In this document: positions 9,434-37,908 of the stretch, piece after piece
Layout: the number at the start of each line of letters is the position of its first letter
Position numbering within the stretch: the first letter of the stretch is position 1
Source of the DNA: Verrucomicrobiota bacterium
Lineage (GTDB): Bacteria > Verrucomicrobiota > Verrucomicrobiia > Chthoniobacterales > Chthoniobacteraceae
NCBI GenBank assembly: GCA_026398235.1
Contig: JAPLTE010000040.1
Location: forward strand, 578 to 64,577
Direction of reading: 5' to 3'
Length of the DNA stretch: 64,000 nt
The notes under the pieces: model-generated
Seen by the model: only the letters and a program-made list of their open reading frames with translations
The model's database searches: none
What the model was told of the DNA's origin: nothing
Made by a program: the position numbers and the translations under genes

Positions 9434-9521
9434 GGAGGGGTGGTAGAGTGGTCTATTGCACCGGTCTTGAAAACCGGCATGCCGCAAGGCATCGTGGGTT
9501 CGAATCCCACCCCCTCCGCCA
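9434..9521 (+). tRNA. tRNA-Ser (anticodon UGA), CCA encoded
   Basis: Acceptor stem is GGAGGGG/CCCCTCC. Anticodon stem-loop is CCGGT-CTTGAAA-ACCGG (anticodon TGA). It has a long variable arm (CATGCCGCAAGGCATCG), a T arm GTGGG-TTCGAAT-CCCAC, discriminator G, then CCA. Confidence 0.9.
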
Positions 9522-33896: not shown

Positions 33897-35084
33897 GTGA
33901 AACCGAACCAAATCCTCGTTGCCAACATCGGCAGCACCTCGTTCAAGTTCCGCTTGATCGAGATGCCCGATGAGCGCGTGCTCGCCAAAGGCGGCATGGA
34001 GCGCATCGGCAGCGCGGATTCCACCTTCAAATACCAGCTCGGCAACGAGCCGGAGCAGAAGGGCGCGGCTGCGTTTCCGGATTATTCGGCGGCTATTGCG
34101 TTTGTGGAAAAAATCCTCGGCGGGTTTAAAAACCTGGCCGCGGTCGGCTTCAAGCCGGTGATGGCGCGTGGCATCTCGGGCACTCAACTGTTCGACGAGA
34201 AGGTGCTGCGCGCCATGGAAGAAGTGAATACCTTGCTTCCGGCCCACAATCCGCCTTACATCGCGGCGGTGCGCAGCTTCCACGCCTGCAACCCCGAGCT
34301 TCCCTGCATCGGCACCTTCGAGACGGCCTTCTATGATGAAGTGCCGCTGGAAAACCGGCGTTACCCGGTGCCGCTGGAATGGGAAAGTAAATATGGCATT
34401 CAGCGCCACGGCTTCCACGGGGCAAGCCACCGCTACGTCACCCAACGCGCTGCGGAATTGCGCGGCACCCAGGCGGGGCGGATGATTTCGTGCCATCTCG
34501 GCGGCAGCTCCTCCATTGCCTGTGTCCGCGACGGAGTCGCCATTAATTCGAGCTGGGGCATGACCCCGCAGAGTGGTCTGCCGCAGAACAACAGGGTGGG
34601 GGACTTCGATGTCTTCGCCCTTATCTATCTCGCCCGGGATCTCGGTCTCGGCATCGACGCGGTGGAGAAAGCGCTCACCACGCAATCGGGCCTCAAAGGG
34701 ATGTCCGGGTTGCCCTCGGGCGATGTGCGCGATCTCGTGGGCGCAGCCGAATCGGGCAATGCAAACGCCGTCACCGCGCTCCATATTTTCGCGGGCAGCA
34801 TCCGCAAATACATCGGCCAGTTCCTGGTCGAAATGAACGGCGCGGACGTTTTGATTTTCACTGCCGGCATCGGCGAAAACGAGGCTCCTTTGCGCGAACA
34901 AGTGTGCGCCAACCTCGACTTCTGCGGTCTCGAGCTCGACCTGGAGGCCAACCGCGCCACGAAGGCCGTCGAGGCTGTTATTTCCACGCCGCGCTCCAAG
35001 ATCGAAGTGCGCGTAATCCCCACCAATGAAGAAATCATCATCGCCCGCAACGCGTGGCAAAAACTCTCAAAAACCTCAGCTTAA
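33897..35084 (+). CDS. ackA: Acetate/propionate-family kinase
   Basis: [44 protein letters not shown] and RVIPTNEE are acetate kinase signature segments. GTG 33897 is in frame with the track ORF (33711) but avoids a 160-nt overlap with BMC-H copy 2. Confidence 0.92.
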
Positions 35085-35100
35085 CGCAACACCCATTATT

Positions 35101-35382
35101 ATGGCACAACAAGCAATCGGAATGATCGAAACCCGCGGCCTCACTGCACTCGTCGAAGCGACGGATGCGATGCTCAAGTCCGCCAACGTTGAACTCGTCG
35201 GCCCCATGGTCCAGGTCGGTAACGCCCTCGTGACCGTCGCAGTCACCGGCGATGTCGCCGCTGTGAAAGCCGCAACTGAAGCCGGCAAAATTGCCGCGCA
35301 ATCCCTCGGCGAAGTCGTGAGCGTCGCCGTTATCGCCCGTCCGCATGGCGATCTCACCGCCGTTCTTCCCAAGGCCAAATAA
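35101..35382 (+). CDS. BMC-H shell protein, copy 3
   Basis: [58 protein letters not shown]...AVIARPH. ATG 35101 (the track ORF start at 35026 lies inside ackA). Confidence 0.93.
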
Positions 35383-35388
35383 TAACAA

Positions 35389-35535
35389 AATTATGAATGA
35401 TGAATGAGGAATGATGAAACGCTGGCGCTTCCAATGAAGCTTTCTCTCAAAAGTTCATTATCCCCGCTGCCGCATTCCGAGTGTTCTTTTCAAAACAACA
35501 CATCATCCCGGCGAAGCGTTTCATAATTCATAATT
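35389..35535. repeat. Intercistronic inverted-repeat element, copy 1 (AT-rich heptamer-repeat arms, GATGAAACGCT...AGCGTTTCAT core)
   Basis: Left end is AATTATGAATGATGAATGAGGAATGATGAAACGCTGGCGC. Right end is GCGAAGCGTTTCATAATTCATAATT. The arms pair (GAATGATGAAACGCT / AGCGTTTCATAATTC, 1 mismatch). The element fills the gap between BMC-H3 and the first BMC-P gene. Confidence 0.8.
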
Positions 35536-35560
35536 TAAAATTTATAATTCAAAAAATCCC

Positions 35561-35869
35561 ATGATCCTCGCCCGCGTAGAAGGCAGCATCGTCGCGTCCA
35601 AGAAGAATGCAAAGATGACGGGGAGCAAGTTCCTCGTGGTCCGTCCCCTTGTGGTCGATTCTCCGGCAGCGCGCGAATTTCGTCCCGGCACGAGCACGCT
35701 CGTCGCCGTGGACACGCTCGGCGCGGGCGAAGGGGAAGTCGTCCTGGTGGTCCAGGGCAGCTCGGCCCGGCTGGCTGCCGACGACAAAAATTCACCCGTT
35801 GATGCGGTGGTGATCGGCATTGTCGACACCGTCGATCTCGGTAAAAACCTGCTCTATCGCGCGCACTGA
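35561..35869 (+). CDS. BMC-P pentamer shell protein (EutN/CcmL family), copy 1
   Basis: MILARVEGSIVASKKN...KFLVVRPL...LVAVDTLGAGEGEVVLVVQGSSAR...DAVVIGIVD is the typical EutN/CcmL pattern. Confidence 0.9.
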   Translation: MILARVEGSIVASKKNAKMTGSKFLVVRPLVVDSPAAREFRPGTSTLVAVDTLGAGEGEVVLVVQGSSARLAADDKNSPVDAVVIGIVDTVDLGKNLLYRAH

Positions 35870-35898
35870 CGCGCGTCCTCCAAATTAGAATCTGATCC

Positions 35899-37338
35899 AT
35901 GGCCACGATTGACGAGAATCTCGTTTCCAAAGTAGTGAGCGAAGTGCTCATCCGCTTGCAGTCCCAAAACGGAGCCGCCAGAACCGGCGGTTTCTCTCAC
36001 ACGCAGTATGGTGTGTATGAGAAGATGGAAGATGCCGTCGAAGCCGCGCACCGCTCGTTTTTGAAACTGACCGAACTCGGCTTTGGCGCCCGCAAAAAAG
36101 CGCTGGCCGTGATCCGTCATCTCTGCGTGGAAAAGGCTGAGGAGTGGGGCAAAATCGAGTTCGCCGAAACAAAGATCGGCCGCGAAGACCACAAAATCGG
36201 CAAGCTCAAGATTTGCGGCGACCTGGTTCCCGGCATCGAGTTTCTGGAGCGCAAGGCGTTCAGCGGAGACCACGGATTGACCGTCATTGACGCCGCGCCC
36301 TGGGGTGTCATCGGCGCCATCACTCCTTCCACCCACAGCGTTCCGACCCTCACGGGGAATGCGATCAACATGATCGCCGCCGGTAATACTGTCGTTTACA
36401 ACACGCACCCGAGCGCGGCCAAGTGTGCGGCGGTCGCCATTCGCGCCTATAACGAGGCGATCTGCAAAGAGACCGGCATCTCGGATATGCTGACCACCGT
36501 CATCAAGCCGACGCTGGAAACTTTCGACCAGATGGTGAGGCACCCCAAAGTGGCGCTGCTCTGCGTCACCGGCGGCCCCGCGGTCGTCAAGGCGGCAATG
36601 GCCAGTGGCAAACGTGCCGTTTGCGCCGGGCCCGGCAATCCCCCCGTCGTCGTGGACGAAACCGCCGATCTCGCAAATGCTGCGAAGTCCGTTATTCAAG
36701 GCGCATCCTTTGACAACAACCTGCTCTGCATCGGCGAAAAACAAGTGTTCGTCGTCGCTTCCGTGGCAGACAAATTCATCGAGGAAATGCGCAAGGCGGG
36801 TGCGGTGCAACTGACCCCGGCGCAGATCGAGGCGTTGACCAAAGTGGCATTTACTGTGACGCCGGGACAAGGCGGCGGTTGCGCTCACGCCCATGCGCAC
36901 AAGGATTTCATTGGCAAGAACGCCAACGTGCTCGCCAAAGCGGTGGGCCTGGATTTGCCTGATTCCGTGATGCTCCTCTTCGGCGAGACCACCGAGGACC
37001 ACCTCTTTGTTCAGGAAGAGCAGATGATGCCCTTCCTCCCTATCGTGCGCGTTCCCGACGCCGACGCTGCCATCGCGGCTGCCATCCGTACCGAGCACGG
37101 TTATCGGCACACCGGCATCATGCATTCGCAGAACATTCGCAACCTGACCAAGATGGCGCAGGAAATCGACACCACGCTCTTCATCAAGAACGGCCCGTCG
37201 ATGACCGGCCTCGGGCTCGGCGGCGAAGGCTTTTTGAGCTTCAGCATCGCCACGCCGACCGGCGAAGGCGTCACCACTCCCATGACCTTCACCCGCTCCC
37301 GCAGGTGCGTCATGGTGGAGAGCCTCAACATGTTTTAA
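35899..37338 (+). CDS. CoA-acylating aldehyde dehydrogenase (PduP/EutE-like) with N-terminal encapsulation-peptide-like helix
   Basis: ALDH fold with catalytic-Cys context FDNNLLCIGEKQVFV and no long C-terminal domain. N-terminal amphipathic ENLVSKVVSEVLIRL followed by a Gly/Ala/Gln-rich linker. Confidence 0.92.
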   Translation: MATIDENLVSKVVSEVLIRLQSQNGAARTGGFSHTQYGVYEKMEDAVEAAHRSFLKLTELGFGARKKALAVIRHLCVEKAEEWGKIEFAETKIGREDHKIGKLKICGDLVPGIEFLERKAFSGDHGLTVIDAAPWGVIGAITPSTHSVPTLTGNAINMIAAGNTVVYNTHPSAAKCAAVAIRAYNEAICKETGISDMLTTVIKPTLETFDQMVRHPKVALLCVTGGPAVVKAAMASGKRAVCAGPGNPPVVVDETADLANAAKSVIQGASFDNNLLCIGEKQVFVVASVADKFIEEMRKAGAVQLTPAQIEALTKVAFTVTPGQGGGCAHAHAHKDFIGKNANVLAKAVGLDLPDSVMLLFGETTEDHLFVQEEQMMPFLPIVRVPDADAAIAAAIRTEHGYRHTGIMHSQNIRNLTKMAQEIDTTLFIKNGPSMTGLGLGGEGFLSFSIATPTGEGVTTPMTFTRSRRCVMVESLNMF

Positions 37339-37508
37339 ATTATGAGGGATGAATTATGAATGATGAAACGCTGACGCACGGGCGATGCTCCATTTGTTTG
37401 CCGGCCCAAACTGCGTCGGAACTTATCTGCCAACCAAGACAAAACTTTGCGTTTAATAGAGTGCCCGAGTCTGCGAAGCGTTTCATAATTCATCATTCAT
37501 AATTCATC
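37338..37508. repeat. Intercistronic inverted-repeat element, copy 2 (same family as 35389-35535)
   Basis: The left 40 nt, AATTATGAGGGATGAATTATGAATGATGAAACGCTGACGC, matches 35 of 40 positions of copy 1. The right end GCGAAGCGTTTCATAATTCAT is identical over 21 nt. The interiors are unrelated. It is followed by CTTTTTCCCC and the next ATG. Confidence 0.8.
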
Positions 37509-37517
37509 TTTTTCCCC

Positions 37518-37781
37518 ATGCGAACCGCGATTATCCAAGGCTACGCTACGTCCACCGTGAAGCACAAAAGCTTCGAGGGGCAGCGCCTTTTGATCGCGGT
37601 TCCCGAGAGCCCGGACGTGGCTCCGCAAATCGTCATTGATACCCTCGGCGCGGCGATCGGTCAGCGCGTGTTGATCACCAGCGACGGCAGCGAAGCGCGC
37701 TTGATGTTGCACGATCCGTCGAGCCCCGCGCGTTGGGCCGTCTGCGGCATCATCGACCCGAAAGGCACCTCTCCATCCTAA
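37518..37781 (+). CDS. BMC-P pentamer shell protein (EutN/CcmL family), copy 2
   Basis: MRTAIIQGYATSTVKHKSFEGQRLLIAV...VIDTLGAAIGQRVLITSDGSEAR...AVCGIID. Confidence 0.85.
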   Translation: MRTAIIQGYATSTVKHKSFEGQRLLIAVPESPDVAPQIVIDTLGAAIGQRVLITSDGSEARLMLHDPSSPARWAVCGIIDPKGTSPS

Positions 37782-37806
37782 TACCCGAACACACGAAAAT
37801 GAACGA

Positions 37807-37892
37807 ATCTGGAACTCAGGAACTCAGGAAAAGGACAGCAGAATCTGCTGGGTCGTTTTCCTGTCTTGCTCCTGAGTTCCTGAGTTCCAGAT
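37807..37892. repeat. Perfect 23-bp inverted repeat built from tandem GGAACTCA octamers, intercistronic
   Basis: ATCTGGAACTCAGGAACTCAGGA (37807-37829) is the exact reverse complement of 37870-37892. The 40-nt interior contains its own CAGCAG-aat-CTGCTG hairpin. A T-rich tail (ATTTTCCGCTCTTCTTTT) follows. Confidence 0.88.
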
Positions 37893-37908
37893 TTTCCGCT
37901 CTTCTTTT

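Follow-up and report, generated by a model that had tools for sequence, protein, structure and literature searches.

Heptamer-armed elements between genes of a bacterial microcompartment operon as probable gene-less relatives of intervening-sequence cassettes

Introduction

Intervening sequences (IVSs) in the 23S rRNA of Coxiella burnetii and Leptospira can carry an open reading frame (ORF) for a protein of the S23p/PF05635 family, and this family and its rRNA intervening sequences have been puzzling since the 1990s. In Coxiella burnetii, the IVS that carries a PF05635-family gene is excised at its stem by RNase III (PMC4990558). Here, we compare with these inserts two short elements, copy 1 and copy 2, that lie between genes of a bacterial microcompartment (BMC) operon in a Verrucomicrobiota bacterium. 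The window, which is the whole 64,000-nt stretch of DNA that was analyzed, is G000:C39:578-64577, where G000 is the source genome (a 2.58-Mb draft of 58.8% G+C); the other G labels are genomes, C labels are contigs and L labels are loci fetched from relatives or metagenomes.

We consider it likely, at a probability of about 0.75, that the two elements are gene-less relics of an IVS-type cassette that resemble MITEs (miniature inverted-repeat transposable elements), were recently inserted, are co-transcribed with the operon and fold as an imperfect hairpin. The link to PF05635 and IVS cassettes places an element family that the original prediction, which was made from the letters of the window, had left unrecognized.

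The likeness to the ORF-bearing 23S rRNA IVSs has several parts: the full-length member of the family described here encodes a PF05635 protein as well, inverted ends form a long stem that closes the insert, transcription within the host RNA is probable, and horizontal acquisition is supposed. In contrast to those IVSs, the host RNA here would be operon mRNA rather than rRNA, the window copies have no ORF, and the family is multi-copy within a genome; RNase III cleavage, which was seen in Coxiella, would apply here by analogy.

Correia elements (Correia repeat-enclosed elements, CREEs) of Neisseria are short, gene-less MITEs bounded by inverted repeats and present in many copies. They are often co-transcribed with their neighbors, their hairpins can be processed by RNase III, and they have conserved interiors and a TA target duplication. 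Unlike Correia elements, the elements here have unrelated interiors with no duplication seen, and their gene-bearing relative encodes a four-helix-bundle protein and no transposase. Repetitive extragenic palindromic (REP) sequences, their hairpin-forming pairs (REPINs) and the REP-associated tyrosine transposases (RAYTs) offer a second likeness: palindromic repeats lie between genes, they also bracket a cognate gene that is present once, and many copies have no gene; however, the cognate gene here is PF05635 rather than a Y1 HUH transposase, and the RAYT-like genes of G000 have other REPs. The attC sites of integrons also have conserved imperfect inverted ends around a variable center of ~50-140 nt, but here there is no integrase, cassette array or core site, and the elements lie dispersed at operon junctions.

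Earlier work has described short heptamer arrays in the spaces between bacterial genes, without a link to a gene. In Xanthomonas, convergent pairs of GGGAATC heptamer arrays occur between aligned ORFs at 70-75 per genome (Rehm et al. 2015, PMC4692102); they are <50 bp from the stop and the start, are mostly transcribed, are G-rich and were read as quadruplex formers, with no gene family or mobility linked to them (PMC4692102). The elements here share with them tandem heptamers, inverted pairs and a position between co-directional ORFs, but their GAATKAT unit is AT-rich and cannot form a quadruplex.

Results

Two armed elements in the microcompartment operon

The original prediction described two repeats with conserved heptamer-repeat ends and unrelated interiors, one after the third BMC-H gene (BMC-H3) and one after the aldehyde dehydrogenase gene (Ald), each beginning at the upstream stop codon. 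We found that the left ends agree at 35/40 positions (ATTATGAATGATGAATGAGGAATGATGAAACGCTGGCGC in one copy and ATTATGAGGGATGAATTATGAATGATGAAACGCTGACGC in the other), that the right ends share an identical 21-mer (GCGAAGCGTTTCATAATTCAT), and that the arms are mutually complementary and composed of GAAT(G/T)AT heptamers, all as proposed. The interiors are indeed unrelated (local alignment score 7; shuffle mean 8.3), and both elements begin at or adjoining the upstream stop codon. The extent proposed for copy 1 (35389-35535) caught the element itself and misplaced its right boundary, since the empty-site comparison below gives 35383-35560 (178 nt). The parts are as follows.

35383-35560, plus strand: copy 1, whole insertion, 178 nt, between the BMC-H3 stop TAA (35380-35382) and the BMC-P/EutN ATG at 35561
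35388-35428, plus strand: copy 1 left arm, heptamers and GAAACGCTGGCGC (nhmmer E 1.3e-12; C39:35965-36005)
35429-35509, plus strand: copy 1 interior, about 82 nt (blastn: self-match only)
35510-35550, minus strand: copy 1 right arm (nhmmer E 8e-8; C39:36087-36127)
37337-37512, plus strand: copy 2, between the aldehyde dehydrogenase TAA (37336-37338) and the second BMC-P ATG at 37518

Both window copies are closed by tandem-repeat inverted arms of ~40 nt, with 4-5 GAATKAT units per arm and an inner GAAACGCTGGCGC clamp; the inner clamp pair of the arm family is GAAACGCTGGCGC / GGCGAAGCGTTTC. The inner arms are asymmetric (GCTGGCGC-type on the left, GCTTCGCC-type on the right), and this asymmetry matches the operon direction in both copies. 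The outer heptamers of the copy 1 right arm are degenerate (TAAAATTTATAATTC), the copy 2 arms have nhmmer E values of 5.6e-11 and 4.5e-10, and both elements terminate 5-10 nt ahead of the next ATG. The interiors, of 82 and 94 nt, have no ORF. The copy 1 interior has no relative in G000 or any fetched locus by blastn, and no donor for either interior was found in the same set. Searching Rfam at the gathering score gave no match at the elements, and the sole match in the window was a tRNA at 9434-9518.

The predicted RNA folds are strong for both copies, at -44 kcal/mol (z -4.1) for copy 1 and -60 kcal/mol (z -4.5) for copy 2, and 0/200 shuffles were as stable in either case. The stem is broken about once per heptamer.

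Partial terminators had been suggested, and a T-run was noted behind copy 2. This suggestion is not supported, as we found 6 terminator-like sites in the region vs 4.6 in shuffles, and the T-run is not common to the copies. An intrinsic terminator was likewise rejected: there is no terminator-like site at the base of the long hairpins, and the stem base is AT-rich. A promoter scan was at chance level, with one promoter-like TTCATA-17-TATAAT in the copy 1 right arm vs 1.4 expected.

Filled and empty junctions

Orthologous junctions were compared on the species relation ((G000,G005),G001), which is given by nucleotide identity. The BMC-H3|BMC-P junction is filled in G000 only, by the 178 nt of copy 1 between TAA and ATG. 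The empty site reads ...GCCAAATAA|ATGATCCTC..., being TAAATG in G001, G005, G009 and G004 and TAATG in G008 and G006. It is also empty in the metagenome contigs L149/L150; these, at 95-97% identity to the G000 flank, resemble the population of G005 and hence give no evidence separate from it. The Ald|BMC-P junction of copy 2 is filled in G000 and G005 and empty in G001 (TAA-ACCCG-ATG) and, with similar sites, in G003 and G008. In the ATP synthase (atp) operon, the atpA|atpG junction is filled in G001 and G005 and empty in G000 (TAA-TTTTCCAAA-ATG), and a site next to atpD is filled in G005 only and empty in G000. At each compared junction the insert stands directly 3' of the stop codon, with the few original spacer bases remaining beside the ATG, and no arm remnants were seen at the empty sites of G001, G009 and G004.

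Hence, since sister genomes keep the same junctions without the inserts, the inserts are recent additions between stop and start codons. Copy 1 was gained in G000's own lineage, into TAA|ATG, and copy 2, which has an orthologue in the congener G005, is common only to these two genomes.

The same comparison covers a third hairpin of the BMC operon, which has another arm family and the same design as copies 1 and 2.

37806-37893, no strand assigned: third intercistronic hairpin of the BMC operon, CTCAGGAA octamer arms (genome-wide hairpin scan)

It is missing from G005, G001 and L149/L150, whose two BMC-P genes overlap as ATGA, and is an insertion specific to G000. The nearest relatives have the operon with neither copy 1 nor the third hairpin, which makes it unlikely that these two play a built-in regulatory role; older copies may have one.

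The arm family

Searching G000 with a hidden Markov model (HMM) of the arm returned exactly 12 arms in 6 convergent pairs (E 8e-8 to 1e-12), so that the further copies sought by the original prediction do exist. The arm family is not due to chance, because all 12 arms are paired, the next HMM match has E ~4 and 0/200 shuffles fold as stably; no arm was found alone. Among 40 relatives searched by pattern, three congeners have the same arms (at least 4 copies in G001, at least 12 in G005 and at least 1 in G008), and the 6 other congeners and 31 genomes of other genera gave none, barring one weak 2-mismatch match in G015.

The position of the copies is uniform. All of them (23/23) sit between co-directional genes, with the upstream stop codon -10 to +6 nt from one arm and, read from the copy sequences, the downstream start mostly 4-10 nt from the other. 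Flanking genes were taken from calls based on G+C content at third codon positions (GC3), except that the aldehyde dehydrogenase flank at 3 copies was taken from Pfam calls. One copy, on C139, had been considered to stand at a divergent promoter; this was rejected, as both neighbor genes are on the minus strand.

The arm family thus has the traits by which MITEs are recognized: it is short, gene-less, bounded by terminal inverted repeats, multi-copy and polymorphic for insertion. The suggestion that the elements are REP/MITE-like therefore stands in its MITE-like part, given the multi-copy arms in four congeneric genomes, the filled and empty sites at base resolution and the existence of both gene-bearing and gene-less copies. 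Its REP part falls, as taken up below.

Whole or partial elements are tandemly duplicated locally at L034:5021-5405 (G005:C390), L033:5401-5734 and L035:10753-10962. At L034 about 26 nt of flank belong to the repeat unit, and this points to slippage or unequal exchange rather than transposition.

A gene-bearing form and its deletion derivatives

We found a full-length form of 500-530 nt with the same arms at the atpG|atpD junction of G001 (532 nt) and G005 (500 nt), and the two are orthologous. The ORF in the G001 long copy (L031:9257-9694, minus strand) matches PF05635 (23S_rRNA_IVP) at 70.8 bits and that in the G005 long copy (G005:C276:4368-4676, minus strand) at 66.5 bits, against a cut-off of 33.8. 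PF05635 is the four-helix-bundle "23S rRNA intervening-sequence protein" family. Both ORFs are oriented as the atp operon; the stop of the G001 ORF overlaps the atpD start as ATGA, and the G005 ORF ends at a TAA within the arm, 17 nt upstream of the ATG. The atpG|atpD gap of G000 (C51:17565-17796), which is the cassette site in G001 and G005, has a small ORF for a 68-aa Cys-rich (CxxC...CxxC) protein and no arms.

Shorter copies carry pieces of this cassette. The atpA|atpG copies L031:10686-10875 and L032:5657-5847 lack most of the PF05635 gene and retain the 3' end of the cassette (48-72 nt, 78-83%, E 1e-11 to 1e-12), and in a repeat listing the former, from G001, also matches the end with the 5' leader (~70 nt, 68%). 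The short copies in the atp operon are internal-deletion derivatives of the gene-bearing cassette, with its two ends kept and its middle gone. Similarly, the C51 copy of G000 retains the whole 5' leader of the cassette (E 2e-11), and the first 29 nt of the copy 2 interior resemble this leader (86%, E 1e-6).

A PF05635 gene is absent between the arms of the window copies and is carried only by same-arm copies in G001 and G005. Hence, the window copies are filed as gene-less derivatives and not as cassettes.

The hairpins as possible operon devices

An alternative, in line with the RNA-stability hairpins that the original prediction suggested, is that the hairpins serve the operon as functional RNA devices in processing, stability or translational coupling that set the shell:enzyme ratio, and are kept by selection for this, however they arose. 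The strong predicted folds, the presence of RNase III and the exact cistron-boundary sites in operons of fixed ratio (the BMC operon has three, and the G005 atp operon as many as four) would agree with such a role. A further point in its favor is one copy in the atp operon.

G000:C51:14947-15147 (orthologues L031:12407-12607 and L032:7383-7583): atpH|atpA copy, gene-less

This copy is 93-100% identical among three species, with flanking genes at 79-90%; its 3' half is nearly invariant, and it provides the atpH stop codon. It looks to have been co-opted and put under purifying selection, or to have been recently exchanged. Its conservation beyond that of its flanks indicates that a co-opted function can occur.

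However, in the closest relatives the operon has TAAATG and ATGA in place of copy 1 and the third hairpin, the interiors show no relationship, and other orthologous copies, those of atpA|atpG and the gltD site, have interiors that change faster than the flanks (64-70% vs 85-93%). Neither covariation between the arms nor a strand-specific G-U signal was found. The copy 2 interior is 96.7% identical between G000 and G005, with the flank at 97%, and these genomes are too close to tell selection. We consider it unlikely that the elements are operon devices of this kind, and we retain the reading of gene-less inserts derived from an IVS-type cassette.

Transposases and target sites

The elements might instead be REP/REPINs moved by a RAYT (Y1 HUH transposase), or an insertion sequence might have given rise to them as ordinary MITEs. 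In favor, they are gene-less palindromes that lie between genes in many copies, and G000 has four RAYT-like Y1 transposase genes with their own REP-type hairpins, which form a separate repeat system.

G000:C138:629-961: RAYT-like Y1 transposase gene
G000:C19:1122-1457: RAYT-like Y1 transposase gene
G000:C19:9344-9688: RAYT-like Y1 transposase gene
G000:C47:1810-2151: RAYT-like Y1 transposase gene

A REP/RAYT origin was rejected because each of these four genes is bracketed by different, GC-rich REP hairpins that are unrelated to the GAATKAT arms. In addition, no arm adjoins any transposase, no Y1 or DDE transposase is bracketed by GAATKAT arms in the 41 genomes searched (G000 included), PF05635 genes are the only genes found between such arms, and there is no target duplication. 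Hence, we regard movement of the elements by a RAYT or by an ordinary insertion sequence as very improbable.

Other tandem-repeat-armed hairpins and cassettes

The design is not confined to GAATKAT arms. When all of G000 was scanned for such hairpins, at least 62 turned up, with arms that are tandem repeats and fall into at least 7 families; examples are C100:1153-1635 and C79:25863-26326. Genes of the PDDEXK_3/GxxExxY nuclease fold (124 and 125.5 bits) lie in two long elements with CTCAGGAA arms. Inverted tandem-repeat arrays, of GTTGAGAG-type and GACGCGGA-type units, also enclose the other two PF05635 genes in G000. One intergenic junction holds different families in different species, with a GACGCGGA-type hairpin in G000 (C31:7381-7474) and a GAATKAT-type one in G005 (L035:10753-10962) and G008 (L040:5579-5787). 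One further CTCAGGAA-armed element, G000:C98:482-1032, encloses a nested array of ~25 tandem CACGAAGG octamers.

Such arms also accompany PF05635 genes elsewhere. Across the order, 17-18/20 sampled PF05635 genes have them, and among relatives of the G001 protein from many phyla we found periodic inverted arms in 60/80 (period 7 in 40 and period 8 in 20), with 0/76 in control windows displaced by 700 nt. A related xxATGAA heptamer goes with the proteins nearest to that of G001, which are 46-61% identical to it and come from at least 8 phyla (Deltaproteobacteria, Chloroflexota, Aminicenantes, Acidobacteriota, Planctomycetota and Nitrospirota among them). Protein subfamily and arm unit travel together, although shared descent confounds a formal test. 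The window elements are one case of a general design.

These data also bear on whether the heptamer arrays are binding sites at the DNA level, for the four-helix-bundle protein or a host regulator, with the inversion reflecting symmetric binding. The heptamer unit is conserved with its G/T position free and with no co-variation between arms, heptamer type follows protein subfamily from phylum to phylum, and different PF05635 genes of one genome have different units, all of which would fit binding. However, there are six copies in G000 and no cognate gene, the elements lie within operons and not in promoter regions, and common descent confounds the pairing of unit with protein. As the explanation of the arrays, binding sites seem to us highly improbable, and binding is in any case compatible with an origin from IVS-type cassettes.

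A proposed mechanism

On the preferred reading, the elements are non-autonomous, MITE-like or decayed IVS-type derivatives, and they would be selfish rather than devices that arose for the microcompartment operon. Transcribed within the operon mRNA, they would fold as a hairpin that is long and imperfect, mismatched about once per heptamer. This hairpin would loop the insert out, so that the stop codon upstream and the start codon downstream adjoin each other at its base; bringing stop and start together would explain why coupled junctions tolerate the inserts, and the juxtaposition of the codons probably makes insertion at translationally coupled junctions tolerable. The arms would also provide TGA in all three frames. 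Further, on the model of rRNA IVSs, cleavage of the stem by RNase III may part the cistrons: G000 encodes RNase III, and the enzyme excises the Coxiella IVS.

Several results weigh against this reading. Copy 1 shares with the gene-bearing cassette only the arms, the polarity and ~12 nt, and no source for its interior was found; G000 has no gene-bearing copy with GAATKAT arms; and unrelated interiors are not expected from plain copy-and-paste of one MITE. There was no target-site duplication at four filled/empty comparisons, including BMC-H3|EutN1, Ald|EutN2 and atpA|atpG, and no recognizable recombinase was found. The atpA|atpG pattern conflicts with ((G000,G005),G001) and needs precise loss, parallel gain or interspecies recombination. 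Polarity relative to the host genes is alike at 6/8 independent sites and not at all of them. Lastly, the covariation that the original prediction proposed to look for is missing at the heptamer G/T position between arms, where 25 pairs and 26 mismatches (51 comparisons at independent sites) equal the shuffle expectation, and the G-U-type and A-C-type mismatches are equal (15 vs 13) and uninformative on strand. Hence, there is no evidence for a selected perfect stem or for RNA of one strand.

The findings can be joined into a broader scheme, which we put forward tentatively and which as a whole is rather doubtful. Tandem-repeat-armed cassettes would form a class of mobile elements without a canonical transposase. 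The cassettes would carry PF05635 and, in the same genome, PDDEXK_3/GxxExxY genes, and the small protein of each cassette might recognize the heptamer or octamer arms that enclose its gene. Copies that have no gene, like the two of the window, could have been moved in trans like MITEs or REPINs. The elements might aim at translationally coupled stop-start junctions, the hairpin would hold the two codons together and hence be tolerated in essential operons, and some copies, such as that at atpH|atpA, may later have been co-opted by the host.

Full-text literature searching returned no description of such cassettes in operons. The locus brings together, in one lineage, a multi-copy arm family, gene-bearing and gene-less copies, deletion intermediates and base-exact insertions. 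In essential operons these insertions fall, at single-base precision, between one gene's stop codon and the start codon of the next, on evidence from one genus. For annotation, this is a caution that structured "regulatory" operon spacers may be recent selfish insertions.

Genes around the elements

The genes that flank the two window copies are all on the plus strand.

35026-35382, plus strand: BMC-H shell protein gene, upstream of copy 1 (PF00936, 80.7 bits)
35561-35869, plus strand: BMC-P (EutN/CcmL) gene, downstream of copy 1 (PF03319, 99 bits)
35899-37338, plus strand: aldehyde dehydrogenase gene, upstream of copy 2 (PF00171, 110 bits)
37518-37781, plus strand: second BMC-P gene, downstream of copy 2 (PF03319, 69.6 bits)

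Elsewhere in the window, positions 1497-1572 hold another tandem-repeat-armed hairpin of the same design, with CGCAAAG-type units.

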